Shown in pieces: positions 9,785-46,377 of a DNA stretch of 64,000 bases. The notes under the pieces were generated by a model that saw nothing but the letters and a program-made list of their open reading frames with translations, did not search any database and was not told where the DNA came from. The translations under genes were made by a program, and so were the position numbers. This DNA comes from Candidatus Harrisonbacteria bacterium (GTDB lineage Bacteria; Patescibacteriota; Minisyncoccia; UBA6257; 1-14-0-10-44-23): NCBI GenBank assembly GCA_023255625.1, contig JAHFLF010000001.1:290965-354964 (forward strand), in the 5' to 3' direction. Position 1 is the first letter of the stretch. Each line of letters begins with the position of its first letter.

Positions 9785-10273
9785 ATGTCGAAAGAGACGC
9801 TGACTCACCAGTTGTTCGCGTTGCAGTGCGGCATGGTCTTGAGGGACTACGACAACCCGATCGAGGACTCCAAGCGGCAGGAGATCAACGTCTCCGATGC
9901 CATCGCTCCGGAAGACCTCGGGTGCGGGATCTTCTTCGAGTTCCCCGGGATGACAGACGAACACGCCCCGAAGGCACTCCGCGGCCAGCAGTTCCTGGCG
10001 GTGGCAGTGCTCGAAAAAGACCGCGTGTTTGTGTCGACGGTCATCGATCCCGACACTCATCGCGAGAAGGGACTCAAGCTCGCAGCCCTGATGTTCGGCC
10101 GGTTCACTCGTCCGTCGGCCGCAAGGCTGGCGAACCCGGACAGCATCTGGCAGTGGGCGGCTCGATCCTCTCGGGCCAGCCTCGACGGCTACGAGAGCGC
10201 CGAGGTGATCGCTCGCGAGACGCCGTGCCACTGCGGGCGCATGCATGCCCCGGCGAACTGCTGGGCGACCTAG
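9785..10273 (+). CDS. hypothetical protein (162 aa)
   Basis: ATG preceded by AAGGAGATGCG. Overlapping ORFs in other frames lack an SD. Confidence 0.5.
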   Translation: MSKETLTHQLFALQCGMVLRDYDNPIEDSKRQEINVSDAIAPEDLGCGIFFEFPGMTDEHAPKALRGQQFLAVAVLEKDRVFVSTVIDPDTHREKGLKLAALMFGRFTRPSAARLANPDSIWQWAARSSRASLDGYESAEVIARETPCHCGRMHAPANCWAT

Positions 10274-10276
10274 CAG

Positions 10277-10843: not shown

Positions 10844-11238
10844 TGCCGCCGTATCTGAGAGAGCTTCCGACGTGGTATGGAGATCCGCCGCCGCGTTGTC
10901 AGCACCCCCACCAAAAGCCATCACGTTCGCGTTGCTCATCGTGTGGCTATCCGGGCATCGAGTTCGTCTGTTCGAAGTGCGAAGAGAAGGTCAAATTCGT
11001 ACCAGACGAGCGACGCAAAGAACGCAAGAGTCCTCCAAAGGGCAAATGCGTCTATGAGCACAAAAGCGCCTGTCGCCATGACGGGAAGCTCTATCCGGAT
11101 CGGTGCTTCCATTGCGAGTGCGTGACGATGAAGTACAAGTGCACCACATCTAAAACCTTCATCGAGTCCTCTCGTGGTTCGCCCAACGTCGAGAGGGAAC
11201 CGGGGAAAGGCGAGTTTTCGGGAGCTGAGAGTTATTAG
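10843..11238 (+). CDS. Cys-rich protein (131 aa) with several CxxC motifs
   Basis: ATG overlaps the upstream stop (TGATG). CSSC, CSKC and CFHCEC motifs. Confidence 0.45.
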   Translation: MPPYLRELPTWYGDPPPRCQHPHQKPSRSRCSSCGYPGIEFVCSKCEEKVKFVPDERRKERKSPPKGKCVYEHKSACRHDGKLYPDRCFHCECVTMKYKCTTSKTFIESSRGSPNVEREPGKGEFSGAESY

Positions 11239-16981: not shown

Positions 16982-16984
16982 TTC

Positions 16985-17100
16985 TTATTCTCCCTTTGTA
17001 AAAGGGAGGGGACCGCAGTAGCGGTGAGGGATTTAGTTCCGCCCCCTAGTTTAAATCCCTCCCGGCTACTGCCGTACTCCCTTTAGGAAAGGGAGAATAA
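16985..17100. repeat. inverted pair of REP/MITE-like elements
   Basis: TTATTCTCCCTTTGTAAAAGGGAG-GGGACCGCAGTAGCGGTG-AGGGATTT followed by its inverted counterpart AAATCCCTCCCGGCTACTGCCGTACTCCCTTTAGGAAAGGGAGAATAA. Confidence 0.8.
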
Positions 17101-17275: not shown

Positions 17276-17667
17276 CTACTGAAAACCGTCCAGCTCGAAA
17301 CGGACAGGCTCCACGGTGGTGCGCAGCCCAAGCGCCTTCTCGACCGTCGTTCTCTCAGCATCCTCGAGAAAGAGGCGCCCGTGCTTCAACTGCCTGCACT
17401 CGGAAGTGTCAGATCTCCTGTAGGCCACCACTGAGTACCATCCCTGACTCCGAACCTCCACCGTGAAAGGGGCGAAGGACGGAGAAACCCAGAAACATGT
17501 GAATGGGGAGTCGAGACCCGACACTGAGTCGGGAATGATCACCCACTCGTCTTTCCCGTTGGGAGCGACAAAGGGATTGAGCTGCTCCAGGGCGGCCCTG
17601 ACCGCCTCCATCTGCTTCTGATCCAATCCCTCGAACCTCAGCCTCTTCCCGATCATCACTGACATGC
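17276..17667 (-). CDS. hypothetical protein (about 130 aa) in small GC-rich island
   Basis: ATG at 17667 preceded by AAGGAGGACGC. Confidence 0.5.
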
Positions 17668-17908
17668 GTCCTCCTTTGCCAGTGCGGTCAACCATTGACC
17701 CCGCCTGACAAGAGTAAGCATGCGCTCAACTTGACATATTTGCAACATTATTTTATACTATATTTATACAGATATTGACTTTATATAATAAAAACATCAT
17801 AATAACGACATCAAAATAAATGACACTTCTTCGCTCTAGTGAGCTACGAAGTGCAAGCAGTTTCCGCTATGGTGAGCTACGGACTGCAGGCACTTTATTA
17901 AAATAACC

Positions 17909-17956
17909 AAATCCCTCCCGGCTACTGCCGTACTCCCTTTAGGAAAGGGAGAATAA
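17909..17956. repeat. REP/MITE-like element, identical to the copy at 17053-17100
   Basis: 48-nt identical copy AAATCCCTCCCGGCTACTGCCGTACTCCCTTTAGGAAAGGGAGAATAA. Confidence 0.85.
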
Positions 17957-20271: not shown

Positions 20272-20335
20272 TCCTCGTAGTTCAACTCCGACGCTCACAG
20301 TAGTAAGGTCGGAGCCCCGACCTACTGCGTCGGGG
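20272..20335. repeat. about 64-bp direct repeat, copy 1 (nested hairpin GACGC-tca-CAGTAG-AGGTCGG-agcc-CCGACCT-CTACTG-CGTC)
   Basis: Repeated at 20695-20758 with two mismatches. The two copies flank the GIY-YIG gene and tRNA-Arg. Confidence 0.8.
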
Positions 20336-20346
20336 TGAATAGAATT

Positions 20347-20613
20347 ATGATCGGATATGTTTACATATTGCGAGCTGCCGATGACCGCTTGTATGTCGGC
20401 AGCACCAGCAATTTAGAATATCGTATGCGCCAACACATAGCTGGTCATACGCAAACAACTCGCAATATGAAAAAATTTGCGCTTGTTTTTAAGCAAGAGA
20501 CGGCTAATTTGAAAATAGCCCGTGCTGCTGAACGAAAGCTCAAAAAACTAAAACGCAAGGATTACCTAGAAAAAATCATCAAAGACGGCTATATTAAGAT
20601 ATTACCCCCATAG
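20347..20613 (+). CDS. GIY-YIG nuclease superfamily protein (YhbQ/UPF0213-like)
   Basis: GYVYILRAADDRLYVGSTSNLEYRMRQH carries the GIY...YIG motif. The 3' end overlaps tRNA-Arg. Confidence 0.65.
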   Translation: MIGYVYILRAADDRLYVGSTSNLEYRMRQHIAGHTQTTRNMKKFALVFKQETANLKIARAAERKLKKLKRKDYLEKIIKDGYIKILPP

Positions 20614-20674
20614 TTCAATGGATAGAACAAAACTCTTCTAAGGTTTTGATGTAGGTTCGATTCCTACTGGGGGT
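20604..20674 (+). tRNA. tRNA-Arg (anticodon TCT)
   Basis: ACCCCCA acceptor, anticodon loop CTTCTAA, T-arm GTAGG-TTCGATT-CCTAC. Confidence 0.7.
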
Positions 20675-20694
20675 ACAAAATGATAAGATTGGGT

Positions 20695-20758
20695 AGTTCA
20701 ACTCCGACGCTCACAGTAGTGAGGTCGGAGCCCCGACCTACTGCGTCTGGGTGGATAA
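20695..20758. repeat. about 64-bp direct repeat, copy 2
   Basis: See 20272-20335. Confidence 0.8.
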
Positions 20759-20808
20759 GACAAGGGGTTTCTAACCCCTCAATCTAGGTTCGATTCCTAG
20801 CGGGGACA
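20757..20808 (+). other. tRNA-like 3' fragment (anticodon-arm-like AGGGG-TTTCTAA-CCCCT, T-arm CTAGG-TTCGATT-CCTAG, CGGGGAC-A-CCA) with no adjacent 5' half
   Basis: Canonical T-loop and encoded CCA. The only candidate 5' acceptor strand (GTCCTCG) lies at 20274-20280, immediately before repeat copy 1. Confidence 0.4.
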
Positions 20809-20868
20809 CCATGGATAGTTAATCGGTTAGTCAGTTAGTTGGTTAGTTGGTAAAACGAAAAACTAATT

Positions 20869-21354
20869 ATGCAAAAAGGTGTTGATTTCATCGGCGTATC
20901 GGTTTCGTACTTTTGCCACGACGGCAAGGGGAATTATTTATTCCAAAAACGGGGATCCGGGGCTCGCGATGAGAACGGCAAGTGGGACTGTGGTGGCGGG
21001 GGATTGGAGTTCGGCCAAACAGTCGAGGAGTGCCTGAAGGCGGAAGTCAAAGAGGAATACTGCGCTGATATTTTGGATTCGGAATTCATTGGATACTACG
21101 AGGCATTTCGTACTATCAAAACACAAAATCCCTCACCGCAAGGCGGTCCCCTCCCTTTAGAAAAGGGAGAAGGAAAGCCAACGCACTGGATTGCTCTCCA
21201 CTTTAAAGTCTTGGTTGATCCAAAACAGGTCAAGAATGGAGAGCCGCACAAGTTTGACGAGATTAAATGGTTCCGACTTGATAATTTACCGCCAGCATCA
21301 GAACTTCACTCACAGCTGCCGGCGGAGATTGAGAGGTATAGGGGGAAATTGTGA
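20869..21354 (+). CDS. NUDIX hydrolase carrying an in-frame REP-like repeat insertion
   Basis: Nudix box GGGGLEFGQTVEECLKAEVKEEYC. Residues NPSPQGGPLPLEKGEGK are encoded by a copy of the repeat family at 21126-21172. Confidence 0.65.
   Translation: MQKGVDFIGVSVSYFCHDGKGNYLFQKRGSGARDENGKWDCGGGGLEFGQTVEECLKAEVKEEYCADILDSEFIGYYEAFRTIKTQNPSPQGGPLPLEKGEGKPTHWIALHFKVLVDPKQVKNGEPHKFDEIKWFRLDNLPPASELHSQLPAEIERYRGKL
21126..21172. repeat. REP/MITE-like element inserted in frame in the NUDIX gene
   Basis: AAATCCCTCACCGCAAGGCGGTCCCCTCCCTTTAGAAAAGGGAGAAGG. Confidence 0.7.
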
Positions 21355-26932: not shown

Positions 26933-27275
26933 GACAATAAATGATTGGAATAAGTGAGAAGCGCAGATTTTGATGCAGTTCTAGGCGCGGGAGGGCGGTT
27001 TGTGAGCCGTACTTTTATATAAGTACGGTGAGCAAACCGACGGGACCCGCAACAACGAACTGCTCAAAATATGCATTTCTCACACACAATAACTCTGTAG
27101 TTGCCCCAAATTACGATTCCGGTTCTTGCGATTCCTCCGAAGGAGGATCCGCCTATGGCGGAAAAGTGTCGTGACTTAGAGCTCCACGACCAACACTCTT
27201 TTTCTATCAATCCAGTATATAAATATACTGAAGTGTCGCTTTTTCCTAATCTCCATTTACAGAGAAAGAAAAAAG

Positions 27276-29180
<1,905 letters not shown>

Positions 29181-29630
29181 TAATAAGTAATTTGAAATTC
29201 ATCTAGCCGAAGCCAGATGAATAACAAACACTCTTGTTTTGGGACAACTACACAATTATTGTTGCATACTTTATATCTGCTTGAAGGATATAAAGATTTT
29301 GATTTCCTAATCATTCATTTATCTTTATAGTTTTTAGTATCTTTCGATACAAACATTTTCAAAGAACGAAAGGTATACTCAATTCACTTTTTGAAGTGAA
29401 AATAATACACCCGTCTCGGCGACCTATCGTATGATCTGCAATACGACGACGAGACGGATGCGCTGGTCTGATATATGTTTTTCCGCCAGAGGCGGATCCG
29501 CCTTCGGCGGACAATTTGTACGAATTTCGCGGGATGTTTCGCTGGTTCGTTTGTACTGCCTTAAGCCAGTACTAATGTGGCTTCTAGTATAGTCGACCGA
29601 ATAATAAAGTCAAGACCTTATTAACGAAGC

Positions 29631-30899: not shown

Positions 30900-30960
30900 A
30901 GCTACGAATAACGAATCAATCCGCCGGCTGGCGGAACGAAAGTACGAATAATTTTATAAA

Positions 30961-30986
30961 ACCGCCCTAAAGGGCGGTTTTGTGTT
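30961..30986 (+). terminator. terminator AAACCGCCC-TAAA-GGGCGGTTTTGTG
   Basis: Stem-loop and T-tract after rpmE. Confidence 0.6.
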
Positions 30987-31021
30987 GCTCAAAGCACGAA
31001 AAATCAGTAAGATGAGCATAT

Positions 31022-33331
31022 GTGTCATTTGAAAGACCATCGGAAAAGCCGCAGAGCGCCGAAAGAAGCGAAGGTGCAATTGAAAGGACGCGGCTTTTAG
31101 CGCAGCTGCAAGAGTTAAAAGCTCAACTACTAGCAAACGGAGGTCCTGCCCTAGTGGCCAAAGCCGCCGCTTTCATGGCTGGAGAAGTGACTGCGGCAAA
31201 ATTCTGCCGACGAAGCGAATTACTGCCTCAAGAAGAAGAGCTCCGTAGCACAGCAATTAATGCGCTCGTGCGAGAAGACATTATTAGCGGAGATCAAAAC
31301 CCTGATACCGGCGAGTTCGTGTTCGTCATTGACCCAACAAAAATCAATGGTATCAGCCGCGATAAGTTGCTGAAATACGTTGGTGGGATCGGATATGATG
31401 GCTCCGGCAATCAACTGAAAAAATCCGAAATAATTGCACGCATATTCCGCGACATCCAATCAATCACTCCGGGGCAGCAGGAAGAAGGAGACCTCAATCC
31501 CAAACCATTCCTATATATTCCAAAAAACGCAAAGGACGCGCTTGACCCGGCCAAAATCAAAAAAGCAGAATTTCAAACGACGCTCTGGGACATTGCCGGA
31601 AATAAAGAAGATGGTAATGAGGAATACCCTGTTGCCGATGGTCCGGGGGCCAATGCGCTTGAGACTCGTCTCGCGACGATTATCTTCCATCCGTCATACG
31701 GTGATGGATATCGCGATAAAAGCGGCGTTCTTCTGGTTCGTGATCCGGCCACGCGTGAGTACAAAAAATTCTCTACCGGCACCTTGAGTGACTACAATAT
31801 CAGCGGAACTCGACTTAGTGTTCGCGGCGGCAAGGTTGTACGCAGCAGTCGCCAAGGCCTTGCAGAGATGGCTCCCAGTCTCATCCGGAACGGCGCTCTG
31901 CGTAAAGAAGATTTAATGGCTATTAGAGGTACAAAAACCGGCGTCTATGACAGACGCCCCTCAAAACGAGGTATTAAAAAGTTAGTCATGTTTAACGGGG
32001 TGCGACACTATGTCGGCCCGCATGCCGAGGGTGCGGCGGCCGTACTATTAAGCCCGACAACCGCCGGCATTATAGAAAAAGATGCCTCCGGCAAAGAAAT
32101 GCTGACGCGAGTCTTCAATGCCTTTGATTCAAGCCAATTTGAATTGAAACAAAAGGAAAAGTTCCATGATTCAGGAGTTGATGAAACAAAACCCCGCCCG
32201 TTTGACCTTGCAGAATTTAGCGGCCCTAAAAAAGATGGCGAGTCAGAAGAGCTGTATGCAAATCGCCGCGCAGTCGTAGACTATGTTGAATTCATGAAAA
32301 TAAAAGATGATCTTGCGAAAATAGGTATTCCGGTTGATTCCGGCAATATTGAAACCGAAACCAACCTTGCCCGCGCTGTGCGTATCCTGTCGCAGACAAA
32401 TCGCTATGAAATATTTCTTGCCTTTGCAAAGAAAACGGGCGAATCCGGTATAGCTGCCATCATAACCGCCGGAGATGACGCTCCGTATGTTGAAGCAATC
32501 CTGAAAATTGGCGAGAAATTATCGGCCGATAAGGCACGCGAATTTTTTGAAGAAACCGACCAAGAGAAAATCTTAGAATCTCTTCATGAAAACTCCGGCG
32601 ACAAAACAATCGTAGCACTTCGAGAAAACATTAGGCGTACAAACAGAGAGCTATTCATCCGTTGTGCGGCGAGCGAAACAGCGATCAAAAACCCGCGCGA
32701 AACTAAAAAGATACTCGACCGCGCGAAAGCGGAGATTCGGCTGTTTGAAAATATGCTCCGAATCATTGAAGAAACTGAACAGCTACCGTCAGAATATCTC
32801 CGCGGAACTGAAATGGCGATTACTGAAACCGGCGAACTCTCCGACCTGGATCTTGCGAACATGCTTAAGCAATTTGAGGAGACTCGGAAAAATGACCTGG
32901 ATGAAAAGGGGAAGCCGATTTACGATGCTGAACATCTTGAGGGCCTCGTACAAGATTTCAAACAAAAACTAGAAAATCCCAAAGCGCGATTTTATACTGT
33001 TCGCCAAGGTGGCGCCATCATTGCCTTTGTTCGCTTTGAAGACCTACCGAACGATCATGTCTACGCCGGATCATTCACGACAAGCAAAGATTTGCGCGGC
33101 GAAAAGCTCGGCTCCGCGCTCATGCGAACTGCGTTTGCACAAGAAAACGCCGACAGAACCCTAGAGGCAATTGTTTTTTCCGGAAATCCACGGCTGATGG
33201 AATACCATACTCAAAAGCTCGGCCACGAAATCCATTATGACCAGCCACTCAAAATCGGCGGTGCGTTGTATTACCGGATGACTCGCGAGCCGCGCAAGCA
33301 AGCTACGGTTTCGCTTGGGGCGGCCGCATAG
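31022..33331 (+). CDS. large hypothetical protein (769 aa) with a C-terminal GNAT-like acetyltransferase fold
   Basis: The C-terminal IIAFVRFEDL...RGEKLGSALMRTAF resembles GNAT motif A. About 650 N-terminal residues are unrecognised. Start uncertain (GTG at 31022). Confidence 0.5.
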   Translation: MSFERPSEKPQSAERSEGAIERTRLLAQLQELKAQLLANGGPALVAKAAAFMAGEVTAAKFCRRSELLPQEEELRSTAINALVREDIISGDQNPDTGEFVFVIDPTKINGISRDKLLKYVGGIGYDGSGNQLKKSEIIARIFRDIQSITPGQQEEGDLNPKPFLYIPKNAKDALDPAKIKKAEFQTTLWDIAGNKEDGNEEYPVADGPGANALETRLATIIFHPSYGDGYRDKSGVLLVRDPATREYKKFSTGTLSDYNISGTRLSVRGGKVVRSSRQGLAEMAPSLIRNGALRKEDLMAIRGTKTGVYDRRPSKRGIKKLVMFNGVRHYVGPHAEGAAAVLLSPTTAGIIEKDASGKEMLTRVFNAFDSSQFELKQKEKFHDSGVDETKPRPFDLAEFSGPKKDGESEELYANRRAVVDYVEFMKIKDDLAKIGIPVDSGNIETETNLARAVRILSQTNRYEIFLAFAKKTGESGIAAIITAGDDAPYVEAILKIGEKLSADKAREFFEETDQEKILESLHENSGDKTIVALRENIRRTNRELFIRCAASETAIKNPRETKKILDRAKAEIRLFENMLRIIEETEQLPSEYLRGTEMAITETGELSDLDLANMLKQFEETRKNDLDEKGKPIYDAEHLEGLVQDFKQKLENPKARFYTVRQGGAIIAFVRFEDLPNDHVYAGSFTTSKDLRGEKLGSALMRTAFAQENADRTLEAIVFSGNPRLMEYHTQKLGHEIHYDQPLKIGGALYYRMTREPRKQATVSLGAAA

Positions 33332-34100
33332 ACAAATCAGCAGCCACAAACGGTTGCGCCTTTTCCCATTGCGCCTCAAACAGTGTTCGGTGCATCTGGC
33401 TAATGTATGGATCATCAATAATCACGCCGATGCGGCCGCGCTCATTAAAGCTCAAAAAACTCACTTTATTTTCATAAATTTGTACGATACTGCTAAACGG
33501 AACTTGCGGCGGCGGAATGAGGCGGATAGAGACAATCTGTTTGCTTAATTTTTCTTGGAGCGAACGAATATATTTTGTGTCCGGGCCGATAATCCGTTTG
33601 TGGATGCCGCGTTTTACGCGCTCATTAATATACCGCGCATTTTCTGCCGGTAGATACTTGTCCATAACCTCGTGATCAAGATAGGTTAAGACCTCCCCAC
33701 CTGAAACAAGCGTATCATCAGCCAAAATCCTGATTGCGCTATCGCCCTCGTAATACTGCACACCCGGCTTACCGGAAATCAAATTAAAATCTGATGTTAA
33801 GTTGGCGATAATGCCGCCGAGCGCCTCTTGCGCGACTTTGGCCGATTGCTCTTTCTGCTCCGCAAGCTCTTTCAGCCGAAGCGGATGCGTCGGCTCAAAG
33901 CGCAATACTTTTGCCTTTGTATTTTTTGCGACTAACCCGAGCGCAACGAGCTCATCGAGCACCTTGTAAGTGAGCCCGCGCTTGAGTCCTGATTTTTCGC
34001 TGATTTCACCAGCGGCAAGCGCGCCGTGCTTAAGCAACACCTCGTAAATTTTGGCCTGATCAGCGCTCAATCCGGCTTTAGATAAAGTTTGTTCGTACAT
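33303..34100 (-). CDS. TrmB-family transcriptional regulator (paralog 3)
   Basis: wHTH (QAKIYEVLLKHGALAAGEISEKSGLKRGLTYKVLDEL) and TrmB C-domain. Confidence 0.6.
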   Translation of the reverse strand: MYEQTLSKAGLSADQAKIYEVLLKHGALAAGEISEKSGLKRGLTYKVLDELVALGLVAKNTKAKVLRFEPTHPLRLKELAEQKEQSAKVAQEALGGIIANLTSDFNLISGKPGVQYYEGDSAIRILADDTLVSGGEVLTYLDHEVMDKYLPAENARYINERVKRGIHKRIIGPDTKYIRSLQEKLSKQIVSIRLIPPPQVPFSSIVQIYENKVSFLSFNERGRIGVIIDDPYISQMHRTLFEAQWEKAQPFVAADLSMRPPQAKP

Positions 34101-34113
34101 CGGGCAGTAGAAA

Positions 34114-34386
34114 TTATTTTTGAATGCTTTTTAAAAATTCCATCGTAGCATTCACGGCGGCGTTATCGGTTGGCAGCAATACTAAGCGCTCGCCAAGCTG
34201 TTTATATAATGGCGTGAAAAATTCATCCGCCCATGATGGGGTAAATGTAAAAATTCCGCTAAAATCTATTTCAAGAATCTCTGTTTCCGCTACATTTCGC
34301 AGGTCGGCCTGAAAGGCCTTAAAGGCTTCGCTACCGGATTGGCGCGAGATTAGTGTCGTTCCAAATTTTTTTAGTTCAATACGCAT
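34114..34386 (-). CDS. small STAS-like (DUF4325-type) protein
   Basis: 90 aa. The MRIELKKFG...EILEIDFSGI pattern is typical of STAS-like partners of GHKL ATPases. Confidence 0.4.
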   Translation of the reverse strand: MRIELKKFGTTLISRQSGSEAFKAFQADLRNVAETEILEIDFSGIFTFTPSWADEFFTPLYKQLGERLVLLPTDNAAVNATMEFLKSIQK

Positions 34387-34411
34387 AGAAATTGTTATTG
34401 TTTATCATAAA

Positions 34412-35131
34412 CTAATACATAATTACTGCAAAACACCCTCTGATAGTTTCTGCGCCTCGTGTGAATCGTAGCTCTCCCTTTTCTGTGTCTACGCGCACTT
34501 CGGCATCGCCATTCTTGAAATAGAGATTAATTTTATTTTCCAAAATAACTTTGCGGACAAATTTTAATCCGTTGCCGCGCGCCTCCGGCGCGCGCCCGGA
34601 AACGACTTCTGTAAATGCGACCTGCACGGCCTCCAGATGGCTGGCCAGTTGCGGCCGCACTTGGCGCAGTGTAGCGAGAATCCCCACGCCTCGGTCCGCC
34701 AAAACAATTCGTCTTTTGGCAAGATCATATCCGAAAAAAATGCCGGCAGTATCAGGCCATTTACCCAGGTTATGCGCAAACGAATTGTCGCCAATCTCAC
34801 TCGCGGCTGCTGTTATGAGAAATCCCAACTTTTCCAGGCCATCTGTAGCAGCGAGAAAAGTTTCCAGCTTGCTGATTCTTCCTTGGAACACGGAGCTATT
34901 GGCGCAATAAAACTGACTAGAAAGGTCACCGCCGTCTTTTGCCCATTCATAAGCAGTTTTCTGTATATCGCCGGCGAAAAGGTTCAGATCCGCCTGGTGA
35001 TAATAACGATGAGTGCCTCCTTCTTTGCGGATAGCTAACAGTTTTCCGGATTTGTCCCACCGGCGCAAAGTATCAATAGACACGCCTAAAAATTCCGCCG
35101 CTTCAGCAATATTTAGTAAGTTTTCTTCCAT
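34412..35131 (-). CDS. MerR-type HTH fused to a GHKL (histidine-kinase-like) ATPase domain
   Basis: N-terminal LLNIAEAAEFLGVSIDTLRRWDKSGKL (MerR/excisionase HTH). C-terminal EIGDNSFAHN (N-box) and LADRGVGI (G1-box). ATG at 35131. Confidence 0.55.
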   Translation of the reverse strand: MEENLLNIAEAAEFLGVSIDTLRRWDKSGKLLAIRKEGGTHRYYHQADLNLFAGDIQKTAYEWAKDGGDLSSQFYCANSSVFQGRISKLETFLAATDGLEKLGFLITAAASEIGDNSFAHNLGKWPDTAGIFFGYDLAKRRIVLADRGVGILATLRQVRPQLASHLEAVQVAFTEVVSGRAPEARGNGLKFVRKVILENKINLYFKNGDAEVRVDTEKGELRFTRGAETIRGCFAVIMY

Positions 35132-35213
35132 ACCTACAAAGCATAGCATCTTAGAATAAACTATGCAAATAATTAGCAAAACTATGCAAAGTATATAAAA
35201 CTATGCATTTAAA

Positions 35214-35259
35214 ATACTCCCTTTCATAAAGGGAGTACGGCAGGGCCGGGAGGGATTTT
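35214..35259. repeat. REP/MITE-like element copy (CTCCCTTTCATAAAGGGAGTA-CGGCAGGGCCGGG-AGGGATTTT)
   Basis: Same family as 16985-17100. Confidence 0.7.
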
Positions 35260-35913
35260 GATTGATTAATTTTATCAATATTTTCACAGAAATATGACAT
35301 TTTGGGGCATATCTAGGAAGTCCTAAAAAGCTAGTATTCATAAGGATTTTAGCCCATTTTAGGATTATATTTTGCCACATGTACTTGACAGATTTGTCAA
35401 ATGGTGCTATAGTGTCTTTGTAAGATGACAAATGGAAGGAGAGCGGCGCTAGGCCGGATCCGCGCCAAATGAAGTCTTACAAAGCCGCAGCACCAGAGAT
35501 TGCACGGCAATCACGGTGCAGGGCAGGCATTTGAAATAGAAAGCGTTAGTCGAATATCGCTAGATGTATGGTTTCCACCCCTGATCCGGACACTCAACGG
35601 ACGGTATCTGCGCCGGTAAGGCAGAAAAGAGGAGGGAGTGGTCACTGAAAAGCAAACATCTAATTGTATTCTGTTGCCCTTAGCGACCTGGGAAGTCGAG
35701 CTGGAGAGCTCGACCGAAGGGTAAATAGGCAACACAACGGCTACATATCACTTAATTCATAGAGGAGAGAGTGATAAGGAGATCCGCTGGACACAAGAAC
35801 CTAAACCCGTCTTGCGTCCAGAAATCTCTTTTTGGCGTAGAGCCAGATCGAGCGAACCTTGAAAACTAAACCCAGCACTAACTTTTGCCTAACCCAGCAC
35901 TAACTTAAATAAG

Positions 35914-36168
35914 TTAATGCTGGGTCAAGCTTTGCCGCAAACGGAGTTTTAACTTCGCCAGCGCCCAGCCATGGTACTTAAGTTGCTTCTCGCGCTCTCG
36001 AGCGTCAGCTTCAACGCGATAGGCCTCGTAGTATATCAGTTCCCACTTATGCCCTCGCGTAGAAAAAACCTTGCCGTTGTTATGTGCGGCAAAGCGAACT
36101 CGCAAATCGTTTGTACTTCCAGTGTACAACTCATTGAGTTCATTACGAATTACATAAACATAATGCAT
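35914..36168 (-). CDS. GIY-YIG nuclease superfamily protein (YhbQ-like), second copy
   Basis: MHYVYVIRNELNELYTGSTNDLRVRFAAHN carries the GIY-YIG motif. Flanked by inverted ACCCAGCACTAACTT copies. Confidence 0.65.
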   Translation of the reverse strand: MHYVYVIRNELNELYTGSTNDLRVRFAAHNNGKVFSTRGHKWELIYYEAYRVEADAREREKQLKYHGWALAKLKLRLRQSLTQH

Positions 36169-36300
36169 GCAGTGATTCTATCACTGCATGCAGGCAAAAG
36201 TTAGTGCTGGGTAAATAGAAACGAATTGTGAGTAGGCGATACTCGGGGATTATATACCGGAGTGCCTATCAGCAACGTTCGCGGATTCCTGTGATTGAAT

Positions 36301-36447
36301 GATTCTCCCTTTCCTAAAGGGAGTACTCCGACGTTACGTCGGAGGGAGGGATTTAAGTCCTCCAAAAAACCAATTGATTCGCAGACCCGGCTTTTCTTAT
36401 TCTCCCTTTCCTAAAGGGAGTACCGCCACTAGGCGGGGAGGGATTTT
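36301..36447. repeat. two tandem REP/MITE-like elements (36301-36355 and 36396-36447) at the left border of the largest GC-rich island
   Basis: GATTCTCCCTTTCCTAAAGGGAGTA-CTCCGACGTTACGTCGGAG-GGAGGGATTT and CTTATTCTCCCTTTCCTAAAGGGAGTA-CCGCCACTAGGCGG-GGAGGGATTTT. The central hairpins differ but keep their pairing. Confidence 0.8.
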
Positions 36448-36594
36448 CTCTCTTCTGCAAAAGCCGGATAAGCGAGTCCGTTGATCGCGCACAAGGTGTG
36501 CGCGGAAGCGAACTCAACTCGTGCATCTTAATGGTAGAGATGCAGCAGAGTAGGATTTTCCCCCTAGGCGAAAAGGGGAAAGGAGAAATATACC

Positions 36595-37326
36595 ATGCGT
36601 CGTAATCCAGAAAGTTGCGTTGCGCGCGCCCTGCGCGCGCAGGGCGACCTCGCGAAGCGCGAGGCGGCCCAGAAGGCCGCGGCGGCTCGTGCCGCCGCGG
36701 AAGCTCGGCGGAGCGCCCTGCTCCGCGAGCACTCCGTCCTCGCCAGTTGGCGGGGCGGGTTCGAGGAGGCGGCACGCCGCTTCCTCCTGTGCGCCGCCAA
36801 AGGCGGCGCATTCCACGCGGACGCCGCCGCCTGGCTCGCCGGTCTCTCCGAGGGAGTGGTGGTCTCGGGCTGGGATGTCCAGCGCGCTGCCACTTTGATG
36901 GTGGCCGAGACCGAGGCGCTGGAAGCCGTCGGTAGCATCCGCCGCGTGCCGCGTACGCCGGCAGAGCTCGATGCTCTGCTGACCGCGGCTTGGCCGGTCG
37001 CGGTCGCCCGGGACGGGCGGACCGAAGGATACAACGGCCCGGCCAACGGTTTCGACCGTTGGAACGGGCAGTTGACGCCGCCCGAGGGGAAATCCTACCT
37101 CGGTGGCGAGGTCGCCGACGCCGGCTTCGTCTGGAACGCGGGTGGGCGTTCCACCCCCGGACTCCGTCCGCTCGCGGACGGTCGGTGGGAAGTGTTGGTC
37201 GCCGTCCCGCGGTGGTACCTGGAGGGGGACTCGACGGCGCTCAACGCCGTCGGGGGCTACTGCTCCATGGGCGCGCCGCTCCCGCGGTCCCAGTGGGACT
37301 GGCGCTGCGAGCCCCTGCGCTCGTAG
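36595..37326 (+). CDS. hypothetical Ala/Arg-rich protein (243 aa), island gene 1
   Basis: AAAGGAGAAATATACC before the ATG. Overlapping alternative-frame ORFs are probably GC artefacts. Confidence 0.5.
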   Translation: MRRNPESCVARALRAQGDLAKREAAQKAAAARAAAEARRSALLREHSVLASWRGGFEEAARRFLLCAAKGGAFHADAAAWLAGLSEGVVVSGWDVQRAATLMVAETEALEAVGSIRRVPRTPAELDALLTAAWPVAVARDGRTEGYNGPANGFDRWNGQLTPPEGKSYLGGEVADAGFVWNAGGRSTPGLRPLADGRWEVLVAVPRWYLEGDSTALNAVGGYCSMGAPLPRSQWDWRCEPLRS

Positions 37327-37723
37327 TCGCCACCCCTCACCCGTTTTGAAGCAACGGGAACGATGAGGTAACGCTTCAAGAGAGGAGGTGAGTCGTAAGG
37401 GGTCTTTTCATCCTGGTTTTCGCCATCAAGCAAAACCAAGGAGTTTTCGGGAATCAGTCCCGACGAGTATCAGCTTCTGAGCGGCTGATACTTTAGAATG
37501 GTTAGCTCTTCGCGCTGGTGGGGGAGGTCAGACTCGTTCTGATCTCTCCCCACCGCAAATTTTATGAATTCGTATCAGGATTTTTCTGGATTCCCGCTTT
37601 CGCGGGAATGACAGACAGAAAATTGATATGAGTTCGTAAGGTACGGGCTCAAGAATCACTACCACGCGTTGCTGTCATGGGCAGCGCGTTGGTTTCGCCC
37701 TGACGGGCAATTGGAGGTTTACC

Positions 37724-38212
37724 ATGACCGAGCCGACATACACAGGGGAAGCGATGAGCTTTCGGAAGCGGCTGCCGGAGCCGCTGGCTGGGTTGGTCCG
37801 AGACCTCTCGGACCAACGGACACGGTTCGCCGCGTTCCAGTTCTCCGGGTGGCTGATCGGCGCCTTGGAGGCGGTGTCCCCCCGGAAGTTGGTTCCGGGG
37901 CCGGAGTACATCAAGGACGAAAAGGTCAACGCCAGGCGGGAGCTGGCGTTGTCGGCGGCACGGAGTGCACACGAACTTCTCGAGTGGTACCAAGACATGG
38001 GCTGCAGGGGGCGCCTGTGGGTATCTCGTCTTCTCCCCACGCGCGCCGAGTATGGGAACATCTCTGCCTCCCTGAGGGACGGCATGGAATTCCTCCGTCA
38101 GGAGGATGTCGTCGTTGCGCTCAATCGCGCGATGGAAGAGGCGAAGAATGCCTCGGATCAGGAGGTTGACCTCCCTGCGCGCAAGAAGGAGAGATTCGCT
38201 CGGCCGAGCTGA
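37724..38212 (+). CDS. hypothetical protein (162 aa), island gene 2
   Basis: TGGAGGTTTACC before the ATG. Confidence 0.5.
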   Translation: MTEPTYTGEAMSFRKRLPEPLAGLVRDLSDQRTRFAAFQFSGWLIGALEAVSPRKLVPGPEYIKDEKVNARRELALSAARSAHELLEWYQDMGCRGRLWVSRLLPTRAEYGNISASLRDGMEFLRQEDVVVALNRAMEEAKNASDQEVDLPARKKERFARPS

Positions 38213-38544
38213 CCGAGCGGCGTAAAAATACCAGAATGGCTCTCTGGCAGTGAGTTAAAATCCAGTAGCTCATGCGAATGTAATCCGCTCATCGGATACT
38301 GGTTCAGCGTGCGAACAAGACTCGCGCACGCTGGAAAGGGTTTCAGGAGTCAGCCTTGGTGAGGGGTCGGCAGCGATGTCGGCCCCTCCCAGAAAAACTG
38401 CGTATTCGCGGGTGGAAGTTTCAAACGGAAATTTTTACGCGCGAGTCCGTTGTAACCGGATTCGAAAAGAGAAAACCGCTATCGCATCCTTCGTGGTAGG
38501 AGGTGCGATGAGCTTCGTCCTTCGGGACAAAAGGAGTGACTACC

Positions 38545-38865
38545 ATGAGTCTAAGGGGAGACGACAGCTATCTCGGACCATTCCACCGTCAGCGCACCCC
38601 GGCCGAGGCGGCGGCTGACGCGCCGCATGAGCTCCTCCGGAAGCAGGAGCTTGACGCCGCCGAAAGGATGTACCGCGCGGCGACTGCGGCCGAGTCGCCG
38701 CGGAAATCCAGGAGTGTCGTAGATCTCCTGGATCAGGGCTGCGCGGCGACTGCGGCGGAGAGGGAGTACCTCGCCGCCCGACATCGGGCCGAGAGACGCT
38801 TCGGCAACCGGAACATCCCGGGGGCTGACGGAGGGCCGGGTGGTGGCCAAACGCCCGACGCGTAG
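38545..38865 (+). CDS. hypothetical protein (106 aa), island gene 3
   Basis: AAAAGGAGTGACTACC before the ATG at 38545. Confidence 0.5.
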   Translation: MSLRGDDSYLGPFHRQRTPAEAAADAPHELLRKQELDAAERMYRAATAAESPRKSRSVVDLLDQGCAATAAEREYLAARHRAERRFGNRNIPGADGGPGGGQTPDA

Positions 38866-39156
38866 CCGGGCAGGTCAGCCGAAAACGCCGGGTTAGCCAC
38901 CGGCGTAAATATTCCCAGAGTGGCGCTCTGGGCTGGATGACAAAATACACCCTGTCATCCTGTGGGTTTCTCCGGCGCTGTTAAACGCCGGTGATAAGGG
39001 TAGCGCGTGGCGGAGGAGTGGGAAGACCCCACCCTCCGCCGCACAAAATTCAAACAAAGATTTTTGCGATGGACATTTACATTATGCGTTCCTGGGGACG
39101 CTTGGTCTATCGCAGAAACCTCTGCTTGAAAGACAGCTGGGGAGAAAGAGTGGTTT

Positions 39157-39375
39157 ATGGAGCTGTGGGAGGTCAGTGTCACAGTCCTGTCACCAAGGAG
39201 GGGGACTGTGAAGGCAGAGGTGAAGTCTTCCGAGGCAGAAGTTCTAGATCTTTGCAGAAATTACCCTGCAAGGTATTTAGGACTTAAAATTTCCGTGGCG
39301 AAGATGGAGTCAGAAGGGGTTCAGTGTACTGACCCGCTCTTCTGCGTCATCGACATATCCCCGGGAGGTGATTAA
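39157..39375 (+). CDS. hypothetical small protein (72 aa), island gene 4
   Basis: GGGGAGAAAGAGTGGTTT before the ATG. Confidence 0.4.
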   Translation: MELWEVSVTVLSPRRGTVKAEVKSSEAEVLDLCRNYPARYLGLKISVAKMESEGVQCTDPLFCVIDISPGGD

Positions 39376-39386
39376 TCCGCGTCCTG

Positions 39387-39770
39387 ATGATCACGGGACG
39401 GTTCGCTGGTCAGGTGCGGGAGATCCCGCCGACCACCGACCCGATGGAGCTCTTCGGCTTCTGCGCCCGGGAAAACTGGGCGTGGGAGGTGGAGTGGGCT
39501 TCGGCAACGAGCACACAGGAGAAGTTCGTCTGGGGGCGTGCTGACATGGTCGGCCGTTGCCTGCGAGCGCTCCTGCATGGCCGGCCGGTTTTCCTCAGCG
39601 GTAAGAGATATGCCGCCAAAGGAACCGATGCGGCTGGCGTAGTTGCCGGACAGCTCGAAGACGCCATCGTTAATTCCGGCACCAACGTTCGCGTTGGCTC
39701 AGATGACGAGGATGGCGTCGTCATTGAGCTCTGCTCGGACGAAGAGCCCGGCAGTTCTGCGCGCAACTGA
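39387..39770 (+). CDS. hypothetical protein (127 aa), island gene 5
   Basis: GGGAGGTGA upstream. Acidic C-terminus. Confidence 0.4.
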   Translation: MITGRFAGQVREIPPTTDPMELFGFCARENWAWEVEWASATSTQEKFVWGRADMVGRCLRALLHGRPVFLSGKRYAAKGTDAAGVVAGQLEDAIVNSGTNVRVGSDDEDGVVIELCSDEEPGSSARN

Positions 39771-39849
39771 CAAAGCGCGCTATCTCAAAACCTCTGCTTG
39801 AAACACAACGGAGGAGAAAGGTTAGCCGTTGCGGAACCGGAGGGCTAAG

Positions 39850-40137
39850 ATGGAGCGGCTACGAAAAGTAGCCGCAAAACTGTGTCTGAGAGTTCGACTC
39901 TCAGAACAGTATTGTGTCAGCTACGACACAATCATGCGGTTCGACAGGGTAGTTCACGCGGAAGGCGTGAGATTTATCCTGGCGTTTCCAGGGAGCGTAG
40001 TTGCGGTCTTCTTCAGCAGTAAGACGCTTTGGTCAATTGTTGAAGAAGCTGGCGCCCTTTTGGCGGTATACGATAGCGTTGACACTATCAACCGCCTTCT
40101 TAAGGAAGAGGAGGAAGAGGAGGAATTGGAGGGATGA
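39850..40137 (+). CDS. hypothetical protein with poly-Glu tail, island gene 6
   Basis: CCGGAGGGCTAAG before the ATG at 39850. Ends with EEEEEEELEG. Confidence 0.4.
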   Translation: MERLRKVAAKLCLRVRLSEQYCVSYDTIMRFDRVVHAEGVRFILAFPGSVVAVFFSSKTLWSIVEEAGALLAVYDSVDTINRLLKEEEEEEELEG

Positions 40138-40387
40138 GATAGTCGTCCCTTCCAAACAATTAGCGTTTTCCGGGCGGTGCGCACACAACGCGCCGCCCGG
40201 AGAGAATTAAAATTTACCCGATAACGGGCTGGAAGTGAGTATCGTGGGCTCCGCGTAGAGGTCGTGAGTTTGAAAAGCCGGGCGAGGCGTTTAGCCGAGC
40301 CCGGATAAATCTCTCTCCTCTAAGCGACCTCTGCGCGGATTTTGCGCGACTTGCTTCCGGCCCAGTGTCGGGTATTTTGACGGAAAT

Positions 40388-40425
40388 TAACAAAACCCCG
40401 GGCGGCCAGCTGGCCGCCCGGGGTT
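40388..40425. terminator. bidirectional hairpin AAAACCCCGGGCGGCCAGCTGGCCGCCCGGGGTTTTGGTTT at the right border of the island
   Basis: 16-bp perfect stem flanked by A-tract and T-tract. Confidence 0.6.
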
Positions 40426-40439
40426 TTGGTTTGGAAAAT

Positions 40440-41540
40440 TTAAATTTTAATATACCGAGTTCCTCGCCCTTGTCCAATTCTCTCCAGAAGTTTCAACTTC
40501 ACCAGACGAGTCAATGCTTGCTTAACAGTTTCTCTCTGAATTGTACCGGAAAGTCGCTCGACAACCTCCGCTACACCCATTTCTTGACCCGGCGAGAAAA
40601 GTTGATACACTGCTTTTTGTTTTCCAGAGAGAAGTTTTTCTGGTTGGTCCGCGTCCATAATCTTTCGCGCTCGCGCACACTGCTCTATAAGCGCGGTAAG
40701 AAAATAATCAATCCATGACGAGATGTCTTCGTTTTCTGTGCCGTGATTTTTTTGGGTTGCACGAAGCGCGAGGTAATAATCTACTTTGGTCTGCTCAATA
40801 ATTTCATCAAGCGAGACATATGGAACATAACTATATCCAGCTTGAAGAAGCAGGAAATGAGTAAGTGCTCTACTGACTCGACCGTTGCCATCCGCGAATG
40901 GGTGAATAGCTAGGAATTCAAAGATAAAATTTGCAATCACGAGCAGCGGATGAATCGTGCGGTCTTTAAGTCGCTCGTTGGTCCATTCTATGGCTGTGAG
41001 CATTTCTCCTTTAACGAGATATGAATGAGTAGGATTAAAAAGCACTACATTTTCTTTTTGTTCGTTTGTCAGGACGACTGCGTTATCGCCGTCTTTGTAT
41101 TTACCTTTGTGAAATTTATCTTTCGCAGAAAATTGGAGGAGGATACTATGAAACTGTTGTATCCAACCTTCGGTTAACTTCATTGTTCTCCAGCTATCAA
41201 AAATCCGCCCAATGAGATCGGCGTAACCCGCTACCTCTTCTTGGTCTCGTCCTTTCGGTACATTTACTTTGAGCCCGCGCAAAAAGCGGGCAATTTCTTC
41301 GTCGGTCATTTTTGCACCCTCAATACGCGTCGAAGCGCCGGTCGAGGTGATAATCACAAACGATTTAAGACGCCCGAGTATTTGCGGACTAAGACGCTGG
41401 CTGCCTTGCCAGAGACCTTGAAATTGATCTATTTTTGCGATTCTAGCGAGAATATCTTGAGACAAAGGTATTCTTTTTTCAAAACGCTGCGTATTATTGA
41501 TATTTCTGTTGTTTTTCATAATGTATTGACTATATACCAA
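40440..41540 (-). CDS. Fic/DOC family protein (AMPylator-like) with C-terminal wHTH
   Basis: Canonical Fic motif HPFADGNGRVSRAL. Confidence 0.8.
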   Translation of the reverse strand: MVYSQYIMKNNRNINNTQRFEKRIPLSQDILARIAKIDQFQGLWQGSQRLSPQILGRLKSFVIITSTGASTRIEGAKMTDEEIARFLRGLKVNVPKGRDQEEVAGYADLIGRIFDSWRTMKLTEGWIQQFHSILLQFSAKDKFHKGKYKDGDNAVVLTNEQKENVVLFNPTHSYLVKGEMLTAIEWTNERLKDRTIHPLLVIANFIFEFLAIHPFADGNGRVSRALTHFLLLQAGYSYVPYVSLDEIIEQTKVDYYLALRATQKNHGTENEDISSWIDYFLTALIEQCARARKIMDADQPEKLLSGKQKAVYQLFSPGQEMGVAEVVERLSGTIQRETVKQALTRLVKLKLLERIGQGRGTRYIKI

Positions 41541-41698
41541 CTATATCCGATAGTACACGATTATATCCAATAAAGCAACTACGATTATTCTCTGGATGCT
41601 TTCTAGCCCACCGCCAGTTTTTTAGATCTGAAAATCAGTGAATTCGAGCTGTTTTATACCTGTATTCACTGATTATTGTGATTTTATGACGAATACCG

Positions 41699-45317: not shown

Positions 45318-45675
45318 CTGGTGCCGCGGGTCAGAATCGAACTGACAACCACTTCCTCTTCCAAGGATATTCTCTGCATTACTGCAAAGTTTGGACTATA
45401 TCATCTCCCCAGAGGGGAGTCGGGCGCTATCTGCGAGGTTATTGTTGGGACTCACTCGCTAGTCTCTACACCTGCCTCCGCTAAAGCTACTGCAGGCAAG
45501 CCTTCTTCAACGATTTGGCTTGCTTGCAATCCGTAGCCTCCCGGCGAAGGATTGGCTCGGGATTTTCCTCTCACAAGGAGTTCCCCCGAATTCACCCAAT
45601 TATTCAATCCATATTACTATGGAAGGCCCCAAAGAGTTATCAATAGGGAAATGCTCTACCATTGAGCTACCGCGG
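45318..45675 (-). tRNA. tRNA-Phe (anticodon GAA) interrupted by a 283-nt group I intron between U33 and G34 (exons 45644-45675 and 45318-45360)
   Basis: Exon 1 GCCGCGGTAGCTCAATGGTAGAGCATTTCCCT. Exon 2 GAAGAGGAAGTGGTTGTCAGTTCGATTCTGACCCGCGGCACCA. Intron carries group I R-like (TAGAGACTAG) and S-like (GATATAGTCC) elements, a GGGG internal guide, and ends in G. Confidence 0.7.
45361..45643 (-). mobile_element. group I intron within the tRNA-Phe anticodon loop, with no homing-endonuclease ORF
   Basis: See the tRNA-Phe entry. The 5' exon ends in U and the 3' exon follows a G. Confidence 0.6.
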
Positions 45676-46377
45676 CAGCGGCGCGAACTGCTTCAAACCC
45701 TCAATCCACCCCATAATTTTATAGAACAGTTGAGTATTGTTGATTCTAATTTGAATGACCCCAAAAGGCAAGCGATTAAAGGGTCTTTTACCTTTGCTAG
45801 ATAAACTTACGAAAATATGCACTTTGCCAAAACGACTCTTGGGAATCTTAGTAATCTTTGACCAATAACTAATTGCTTCATCTTCTTGAATATGTTTAAA
45901 GATTCTTAAATCTGCAGTGATCTTTTCTTCTGGTACATTGCAAATCTCGCGGATAAATCTTAGAAACATCTGCACCAACAACGGATCAGAATTTGTAAGA
46001 CTTATTGAGTGTGCTGTTATTTCACGACCCTTAACTTTTCTCACTCTTTTATAACCTTCCGCCCAGTAAAGCGCGATTCCGACAATAAACAAATTTTCTC
46101 TTGATACCTCACGAATCTCAGATTGAGCCAATTCCAAAATATCATCTCTCCGCTTAATGGCTAGGGCTGTCTGCTCCTTATTTCTTTTTATAAAACCAGC
46201 AAGGGATTTTTCGCGGCTCCGGACTGCAATTTTTTTCCGGGCCTCATCAGAAAGGGGAACTTCTTTCAACCATAAAGAAAGGGTTGATTTAGAAATCCCT
46301 AGCAACAGTTTTTGAATCTGACCATAACTCAGACCTTCTAACCTCAACTGAATCGCACGATTTTTATCTTTCCTCAT
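45667..46377 (-). CDS. hypothetical HTH-domain protein (236 aa) immediately upstream of, and slightly overlapping, tRNA-Phe
   Basis: N-terminal GLSYGQIQKLLGISKSTLSLWLKE HTH. Basic. Function unknown. Confidence 0.45.
   Translation of the reverse strand: MRKDKNRAIQLRLEGLSYGQIQKLLLGISKSTLSLWLKEVPLSDEARKKIAVRSREKSLAGFIKRNKEQTALAIKRRDDILELAQSEIREVSRENLFIVGIALYWAEGYKRVRKVKGREITAHSISLTNSDPLLVQMFLRFIREICNVPEEKITADLRIFKHIQEDEAISYWSKITKIPKSRFGKVHIFVSLSSKGKRPFNRLPFGVIQIRINNTQLFYKIMGWIEGLKQFAPLPR

Follow-up and report, generated by a model that had tools for sequence, protein, structure and literature searches.

The 64-kb stretch of DNA analysed here (the window, from a Candidatus Harrisonbacteria contig of the Candidate Phyla Radiation, CPR) contains an island of six small plus-strand open reading frames (ORFs) set among structured non-coding elements. 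We consider it somewhat better than an even bet, with a rough probability of 0.55, that these six ORFs are the exchangeable, conflict-type cargo of a lineage-specific RNA-scaffold platform of ~5 kb in groundwater Parcubacteria. Two comparisons with related contigs carry this reading. The non-coding scaffold is, as judged from the alignments, under purifying selection with compensatory base-pair changes, and by the same kind of comparison unrelated, GC-rich and mostly Shine-Dalgarno (SD)-led cargo sets sit on the scaffold in three lineages. These lineages are the window genome together with L002; L004 and L005; and L011 and L012. The L-numbered contigs (L002-L039) and the P0009 contig are the relatives compared: L002 is a 1.3-kb contig from another sample, L004 is a 633-kb Joint Genome Institute (JGI) contig, and L011 and L012 are 130 and 151 kb long. 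Groundwater is the source of related contigs.

The full unit extends over 35282-40428, ~5 kb, and consists of a promoter, a leader, cargo with structured spacers, a trailer and a palindromic terminator. This extent is assigned because the head and tail pieces are homologous to parts of the relatives' islands. The initial annotation had placed the start of the island after the repetitive extragenic palindromic (REP)-like elements, which proved too far downstream: the promoter and leader begin at ~35282/35385, and a GIY-YIG element is inserted inside the leader. ORF starts are those of the public assembly's gene caller, which puts ORF3 at 38545 and ORF6 at 39850. The parts of the unit are as follows.

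35282-35414, plus strand: upstream region and sigma-70-type promoter, with TTGACA at 35385-35390, a 17-nt spacer and TG-TATAGT to 35413
35420-35869, plus strand: structured leader, 5' part, free of ORFs and without an Rfam match
35870-36212, minus strand: GIY-YIG mini-element of 343 bp, with an 84-aa gene at 35914-36168 and perfect 21-bp terminal inverted repeats
36213-36292, plus strand: leader, 3' part, which in relatives runs straight on from 35869; within a conserved hairpin
36293-36447, plus strand: two tandem REP-like elements, a hairpin CTCCCTTTCCTAAAGGGAG, a second hairpin, then GGAGGGATTT
36448-36594, plus strand: ORF1 5' untranslated region, with three hairpins
36595-37326, plus strand: ORF1, 243 aa, 73% GC, GC at third codon positions (GC3) 0.84, orphan
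37327-37723, plus strand: structured spacer S1, with a homologue in L004 that separates genes C and D
37724-38212, plus strand: ORF2, 162 aa, orphan
38213-38284, plus strand: diverged copy of the two-hairpin post-stop module, recovered with covariance model R1
38545-38865, plus strand: ORF3, 106 aa, a gene call without a family match
38896-38972, plus strand: two-hairpin post-stop module, followed by a GC-rich hairpin at 39009-39040
39107-39148, plus strand: repeat D2 (AAACCTCTGCTTGAAA...), upstream of ORF4
39157-39375, plus strand: ORF4, 72 aa, a gene call with an SD-like GGAG, without a family match
39387-39770, plus strand: ORF5, 127 aa, acidic C-terminus, isoelectric point 4.8, 12 nt past ORF4
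39780-39820, plus strand: repeat D2', second copy of D2
39850-40137, plus strand: ORF6, 95 aa, a gene call with the SD GGAGG and a poly-Glu C-terminus
40195-40390, plus strand: trailer, with the invariant 17-mer AAATCTCTCTCCTCTAA at 40307-40323
40391-40428, no strand assigned: perfect palindrome, 19+19 nt, between the island and the convergent SoFic gene

The head of the unit recurs in L012, where positions 22094-21450 match window 35282-35414, 35599-35670, 35775-35829 and 36234-36267. The upstream region is 75% identical to L012 22094-21963 with both promoter hexamers invariant, the two leader blocks (35599-35670 and 35775-35829) are 81-91% identical, and 36234-36267 is identical (100%) to L012 21483-21450. 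This promoter (11 of 12, plus TG) is the sole strong sigma-70-type promoter near the island, and the promoter scan detected none of that type within the spacers. S1 (37384-37726) matches the L004 C-D spacer up to the start codon, with 80% identity over 158 nt, and window 38894-39017, comprising the 30-nt motif discussed below, the second hairpin and TGTGGGTTT, is 80% identical to L012 14271-14149. D2 has a homologue at L004 17965-17941. The trailer can be aligned to the sequences that close the islands of L012 and L004, and its 17-mer occurs once in the window and once each in L004/L005 and L011/L012. Each of the leader, S1, two-hairpin and trailer modules occurs one or two times in the 64-kb window, in the island only, and module order is collinear in the three lineages.

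Folds are conserved along with sequence. RNAalifold places 80 pairs in the leader aligned with L012, 12 of them compensatory and none broken; of the 86 pairs in S1, 8 have changed on both sides in a compensatory way, 21 have changed on one side and none is broken; and in the two-hairpin module, present as four copies in three genomes, double changes are seen in 18 of 38 pairs; since each of these counts rests on two or three sequences, the covariation is suggestive, not statistical. The minimum free energy (MFE) of S1 (37327-37726) is -170.5 kcal/mol on the plus strand (z = -7.9) and -145.9 kcal/mol on the minus strand (z = -6.1). An RNA-level role for S1 fits these values because the plus strand folds better than its shuffles and better than the minus strand, and the spacers are, as first described, packed with stable hairpins. 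The 30-nt motif that had been noted after two stop codons is hairpin 1 of the two-hairpin module, with compensatory changes in L012 and L004; both copies are real, the first being one base shorter (38219-38247) and the second lying at 38902-38931. Covariance model R1 scores 102 bits on the 38896-38972 module and, untrained on the 38213-38284 copy, recovers that copy as its best new match (18.2 bits, E 0.058). The hairpin that closes the island is a perfect palindrome as claimed, with 19-nt arms at 40391-40428 in place of the proposed 16 bp. It is terminator-like on the minus strand in the scan and, read from the sequence, has a T-rich tail on the plus strand too; it is a candidate bidirectional intrinsic terminator. 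In L012 and L004 the same position is occupied by terminator hairpins, of a different sequence in each lineage.

Two further features of the leader were seen. In the conserved fold, an SD-like box, GAGGAGGGAGUGG, forms base pairs with UUUCCACCCCU. By eye, leader 35760-35771 (TAGAGGAGAGAG) is perfectly complementary to the trailer 17-mer's core at 40311-40322, and the L012 counterpart of this complement is 8 nt long (GAGGAGAG). The complementary segments could represent 5'-3' RNA pairing or a terminal inverted repeat pair.

The non-coding surroundings of ORF1 are also retained in L002. Between the window and L002, blastn gives 68% nucleotide identity over the full 1047-nt match, with 52% identity for the protein, and conservation is visibly higher in the 5' hairpins and 3' region of ORF1 than in its coding sequence. 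Several hairpin arms in the ORF1 flanks differ from L002 at both partners, seemingly in a compensatory manner (by eye, uncounted). The GIY-YIG gene has a Pfam match of 1.5e-15, and its mini-element is an insertion into the leader, because L011 and L012 have the empty site; all four occurrences of the 15-mer ACCCAGCACTAACTT lie within it. The REP-like pair, which the initial annotation had recognized, sits just downstream of the leader part conserved in L012. It belongs to a family (direct repeat family D1) with five exact-core copies on both strands of the window, against none expected by chance; variants are found at 16982-17034 and 21125-21171, and an L002 variant lies in the same place as 36293-36447. 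Among the parts of the unit, only 36293-36447 is of the REP type, a short palindromic element dispersed over many intergenic copies in both orientations. Rfam 15 returned nothing credible at E<=5 in 35000-40700, and in the L012 island nothing except a neighbouring tRNA. For the leader, a housekeeping RNA (RNase P, tmRNA, 6S or SRP) serving as an integration target was considered and rejected: Rfam and ARAGORN give no support for one, and in L003 and L006 the leader is absent from the locus.

The proteins carried by the scaffold are unrelated among the three lineages. L004 has a GC-rich island (up to 72% GC) of at least five orphan genes of 142-332 aa, transcribed towards RNR as in the window, and neither tblastn nor permissive blastp detected protein similarity between the window and L004 islands. 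L011 and L012 have a GC-rich island of 7 kb in the equivalent position. The L012 cargo comprises seven genes of 120-589 aa, compared with six of 72-243 aa in the window, and they encode Csx3-AAA (PADLOC 7.6e-59), a Csx3/CARF-like protein (PADLOC 4e-20), a Pfam HD protein, a MoxR AAA+ protein of the bpMoxR family (8e-20), a VWA protein (1.2e-8) and two proteins of unknown function. The definition of the bpMoxR family comes from the MoxR-vWA ternary conflict systems described by Kaur et al. 2020 (PMC7159879), components of which are, by Pfam, present in the L012 island and absent from the window island. Right past the L012 island terminator, at L012 13698-13940, a tRNA gene follows three direct repeats with a period of ~60 nt that include the tRNA 5' end; to go by their arrangement, these repeats look like integration scars.

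It could be argued that the islands are one vertically inherited operon whose proteins evolve too fast for orthology to be detected, in which case no cargo has been exchanged and only the regulatory RNA has stayed recognizable. Such an operon would explain the collinear order of the modules in three lineages, and ORF1 is indeed weakly constrained (dN/dS 0.54, 52% identity) between better conserved flanks. However, gene numbers and lengths differ among the islands (six, at least five and seven genes, with the size ranges given above); the Csx3-AAA, MoxR, VWA and HD proteins of L012 belong to old families and cannot be diverged window proteins; and modules are duplicated around single cassettes. 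A vertical operon is therefore distinctly improbable.

Cargo and background differ in composition. GC content is ~72% at 36600-37300, ~63% at 37700-38200, ~69% at 38550-38900 and ~63% at 39400-39700, compared with ~47% for the window; the six ORFs range from 51 to 73%, with ORF4 and ORF6 at just 51%. The GC-rich island of the initial annotation thus stands for its 63-72% blocks, whereas the AT-rich genome said to surround it was an overstatement, host GC being moderate. The six plus-strand ORFs were also correctly called, as supported by the gene calls, by GC3>GC1>GC2 periodicity in ORF1, ORF2, ORF3 and ORF5 (ORF3 measured from a start at 38536), and by the comparison of ORF1 with its L002 homologue. 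In that comparison every alignment gap consists of whole codons, codon position 3 is the least conserved (0.56 vs 0.70-0.71) and dN/dS is ~0.54 at a dS of ~0.72, and for these reasons ORF1 is considered protein-coding and under weak purifying selection. The coding sequence of ORF1 is itself a chain of near-perfect GC hairpins, with an MFE of -452 kcal/mol and a z of -6.7, beyond what composition would give. GC3 is 0.84 in both ORF1 orthologues despite the dS of ~0.72, and the L002 orthologue has the same CPR-type flanks as window ORF1. On the L004 and L012 contigs GC3 is 0.62-0.90 in cargo genes vs 0.48-0.69 in native genes. Cargo GC3 reaches 0.85-0.90 at its highest. This pattern points to a high cargo GC that is maintained, via selection or biased conversion.

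A second difference lies in the translation signals. AGGAG, GGAGG or, in ORF4, GGAG stands upstream of the ATG in all six island ORFs, in each case as a purine-rich GGAGG-type box 5-10 nt before the start. Among the 13 native window genes checked, 12 lack an SD: DoxX, rpmE, TrmB, DUF4325, the MerR-like gene, GIY-YIG, Fic, DUF2238, RNR, an HTH gene, RecA and FtsH. L004, L003 and L012 show the same division into cargo with an SD and native genes without one, and most cargo genes across the three scaffold lineages carry SD-like boxes. The usual bacterial 16S tail is GGAUCA-CCUCCUU; by Rfam alignment, the 16S 3' tail of the window genome is GGAUCA-AUUAAACU, without the CCUCC anti-SD. The contrast in SD use pointed out at the start is sharper than had been claimed. 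The 16S gene (27274-29184, minus strand) is 1911 nt long vs the 1533-nt model and has an insertion of ~380 nt; ~125 nt downstream of its end, at 27139-27159, a hairpin GGAUCCUCCUUCGGAGGAAUC pairs CCUCC with GGAGG. Tsurumaki et al. 2022 (PMC9297842) documented loss of the anti-SD motif in roughly half of the Parcubacteria. The window host resembles the Parcubacteria of that study in having a 16S without CCUCC and native genes without SD, and differs in its SD-led gene island, since none is described there; our literature searches found no report of SD-led gene islands within anti-SD-less Parcubacteria genomes. By eye, a TATAAT-like box lies 7-13 nt before the ATG in many native genes of the window, L003 and L004; the arrangement of native genes in this anti-SD-less lineage suggests leaderless mRNAs.

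Taken on their own, the GC content and the SD boxes might be un-ameliorated, functionless marks of a GC-rich, SD-using donor, possibly the host bacterium, from which the block was recently imported. The cargo's 51-73% GC over a 47% background, the confinement of the SD to the cargo of a genome without an anti-SD, and the absence of the block from three relatives with ~83-85% identical RNR would all follow from such an event. We nevertheless find it unlikely. Neither ORF1 nor ORF2 has a homologue in another organism, the SD boxes lie within spacer modules conserved between lineages, and un-ameliorated import is disfavoured because a GC3 of 0.84 has been kept in both ORF1 orthologues, within the same CPR-type flanks, at a dS of ~0.72. 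These observations and the lineage specificity of the framework also tell against the simple recent import from a high-GC host that was initially envisaged.

The island is chromosomal, with rRNA, RNR, RecA and rpmE in its context. The closest RNR proteins of named source (~61-65% identity) are assigned to Paceibacteria, Liptonbacteria, Harrisonbacteria, Colwellbacteria or Patescibacteria; RNR identity to the window is 82% for L004, 72% for L011/L012 and ~83-85% for L003, L006 and the P0009 contig. In the latter three, which are the relatives with this side of the contig available, RNR, DUF2238 and rpmE are directly adjacent, and the 10.8 kb found in the window at 30900-41698, between rpmE and DUF2238, is missing. 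The segment is accessory for that reason, in agreement with the original view of the block as acquired and not a set of ordinary conserved genes. It contains a 725-aa acetyltransferase, TrmB, DUF4325, a MerR-like protein with a mad1-type helix-turn-helix (HTH; PADLOC 3.8e-13), the island, and the SoFic-type Fic protein that adjoins the island (PADLOC 1.4e-43); the Pfam families around the island are TrmB, DUF4325, MerR, GIY-YIG, Fic, DUF2238 and acetyltransferase. By these matches the neighbourhood is defence-like.

The sharp change of composition raises the question of whether DNA of a GC-rich organism was joined to a CPR contig during assembly, and short Logan contigs do break at the REP element and inside S1. 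Against such a chimera, identical proteins with the same neighbours are found on separately deposited contigs of 104 kb and 602 kb, equivalent islands lie inside the 633-kb, 151-kb and 130-kb contigs of relatives, and native-type sequence flanks the island on both sides. Chimeric assembly, a concern raised in the initial annotation, is unlikely, its probability being close to nil.

Whole-database homologue searches cover ORF1 and ORF2, and ORF3-6 were covered by family scans and exact-sequence look-ups. For ORF1, a search of 5.8 billion proteins gave one homologue, the 52% identical protein on L002. An exhaustive HMMER search of 1.84 billion representatives with ORF2 returned ORF2 itself and two weak matches, uninspected, to far longer proteins. 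GTDB genome scans with the ORF1 alignment and a conserved 23-mer gave no match, and no relatives of ORF5 were found in viral contigs. A first metagenome DNA-pattern scan was empty, in a collection that is incomplete for this lineage, as is evident because the JGI contig L004 holds the pattern. None of the six ORFs has a clear signal peptide or membrane helix, ORF6 being borderline at 1.61 on a 19-residue hydropathy window. Considered as a type II toxin-antitoxin pair, ORF4 and ORF5 are adjacent (12-nt gap) and neither matches Pfam, NCBIfam or PADLOC.

Small co-directional orphan genes of foreign composition beside a homing-type GIY-YIG gene are what a prophage, a plasmid or another classical mobile element might leave behind as a remnant, and the relative L006 has an integrase and a resolvase near RNR. 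The chance of such an origin, which the initial annotation had put forward for a phage or plasmid, is slim: the island has no PHROG match and no relatives in IMG/VR, INPHARED or PLSDB, and Pfam detected no integrase, replication or structural gene among the scanned neighbouring genes of the 10.8-kb segment.

In the scaffold-and-cargo model that we favour, 35282-40428 would be transcribed as a single RNA, in which the folded modules would act in processing, in stability or in the masking of start regions. Cargo would be gained and lost through recombination at repeated modules, a process proposed because the two-hairpin module is duplicated around ORF3 and the D2 box around ORF4-ORF5. The six orphan proteins would take part in inter-genomic conflict as defence, anti-defence or toxin-type proteins. 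This role is suggested because the L012 scaffold carries Csx3-AAA, Csx3/CARF-like, HD, MoxR AAA+ and VWA proteins and because the window island adjoins SoFic and the mad1-type HTH protein. The defence or toxin system proposed at the outset is retained in this limited form, with defence-like neighbours and six proteins that have no PADLOC match.

Several observations weigh against this model. The conflict role would amount to guilt by association, and the six proteins are as devoid of recognizable motifs as first stated: none has a family match in Pfam, PHROGs, PADLOC or NCBIfam (in PADLOC 2.0, no component match at E<=1), a PDB sequence search with ORF1 and ORF5 yielded compositional noise only, and the AlphaFold2 models of ORF1 (pLDDT 39, from a 2-sequence alignment) and ORF2 (pLDDT 41) are unusable. 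The single transcript would follow from one consensus promoter and one terminator, and the small number of sequences behind the covariation counts has been given above. The module duplicates have diverged, and any recombination is therefore not recent; no circular or empty-site cargo intermediates were seen. The scaffold was found in three lineages only and is absent near RNR in the relatives L007-L009, L038 and L039. Finally, it is puzzling that SD-led, strongly folded messages would have to be translated by a ribosome without an anti-SD.

We give little credence to a more elaborate version of the model, in which the scaffold is a dedicated platform for genes in a foreign expression grammar: GC-rich, SD-led cargo behind long folded leaders, within a cell whose ribosome has no anti-SD and whose own genes seem to be leaderless. 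The cargo would normally be silent and would be translated when SD recognition is supplied or the RNA is unfolded. The trigger could be an infecting element or an RNA partner rich in C and U, the invariant trailer 17-mer for example; alternatively, it could be the ribosomes of an SD-using host cell after nucleic-acid transfer from the episymbiont. If true, CPR bacteria would have a gene-expression switch of a new kind, conditional or trans-cellular.

Leaving that version aside, the islands show a reproducible CPR architecture in which non-coding RNA modules are more conserved than the intervening proteins and unrelated gene sets occupy one framework. The scaffold offers a handle on accessory or defence genes in a phylum in which the majority of them are orphans, and four of its modules (leader, S1, two-hairpin and trailer) are candidates for new RNA families. 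There is a paradox in the persistence of SD-led, GC-rich genes (GC3 ~0.84) in a lineage without the anti-SD, where native SD boxes are gone. Solving the translation of the SD-led cargo would inform initiation in reduced genomes, and maybe symbiont-host or symbiont-phage conflict.

Elsewhere in the window, Rfam places a group I intron (60.9 bits) at 45372-45644 on the minus strand, in the interval that separates RNR from an HTH gene. In L003, L006 and L008 the sequences bordering it (45321-45375 and 45645-45678) run on without interruption, and these three relatives thus have no intron at the site. Other GC-rich ORFs occur at 346-900 and 1296-2306 (minus strand), 9785-10273 and 10277-10843 (plus strand) and 17276-17695 (minus strand), with a GC3 of 0.69-0.85. 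None of these five has a Pfam or PHROG match; SD boxes are present on at least the 9785 and 17276 ORFs, and REP copies at 17074-17095 and 17930-17951 flank the ORF at 17276. The GC-rich blocks 346-2306, 9785-11238 and 17276-17695 contain none of the island's modules or proteins. Two tRNA-Arg(TCT) genes are found within 20300-20811, at 20604 and 20745, the second being 67 nt long and barely over the Rfam threshold (32.8 bits vs 29); close by are a GIY-YIG-like fragment (20356-20490) and short repeats in common with L009.

Further known systems invite comparison. Integrons, and clusters of attC sites lacking integron-integrases (CALIN), share with the window co-directional small, mostly orphan ORFs behind one upstream promoter, with a folded element after each. 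The island would be such a cassette array if its post-stop repeats were attC sites, and a folded repeat does lie right past each stop codon. An attC site was taken to be one imperfect palindrome that follows each cassette, is ~55-141 nt long and bears the core sites R'' (RYYYAAC) and R' (GTTRRRY); an IntI tyrosine recombinase is needed for complete integrons only, not for CALIN. In contrast, no R''/R' core-site pair is present in any of the five spacers, the modules are multi-hairpin, sequence-conserved and, at 290-400 nt, much longer than attC, and no IntI-type integrase was found among the scanned neighbouring genes. A cassette array of this type is very improbable.

REP and bacterial interspersed mosaic elements (BIME) of enterobacteria and BOX elements of pneumococci are modular hairpin-forming intergenic repeats. 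The 36293-36447 pair behaves in this way, as part of a family of five dispersed copies, whereas no such dispersal is seen for the leader, S1, two-hairpin and trailer modules, which keep the same order in three lineages. Hotspots of variable genes are usually defined by flanking core genes. The locus is similar to such hotspots and to defence islands in holding different cargo in related genomes, in being absent from close relatives and in having defence genes nearby (SoFic in the window; Csx3-AAA, MoxR and VWA in L012). It differs in that the cargo is enclosed by a conserved non-coding framework, which provides a promoter, leader, spacers and trailer of its own.

In PeSL cassettes, small orphan ORFs are reportedly bracketed singly by conserved composite non-coding motifs (promoter plus stem-loop); these motifs are said to be conserved while the ORFs vary between relatives, and gene shuffling by recombination between motifs is said to be expected. 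PeSL regulatory cassettes of the hyperplastic regions of T4-type phages are treated in Arbiol et al. 2010 (PMC2839356) and Comeau et al. 2014 (PMC4122927). In the window, repeated stem-loop modules flank ORF3 (38213-38284 and 38896-38972) and ORF4-5 (D2 and D2'), an arrangement that may correspond to these cassettes. Unlike the PeSL setting, the window is a cellular CPR chromosome without phage matches, and not a T4-type phage genome; its modules are far longer (70-400 nt), multi-hairpin and without a promoter consensus within the spacers; and a common leader and trailer frame the array, whose cargo is set apart from the host by its GC content and its use of the SD. The PeSL cassette may be the closest architectural precedent for the island, a likeness in possible working and not in family membership.

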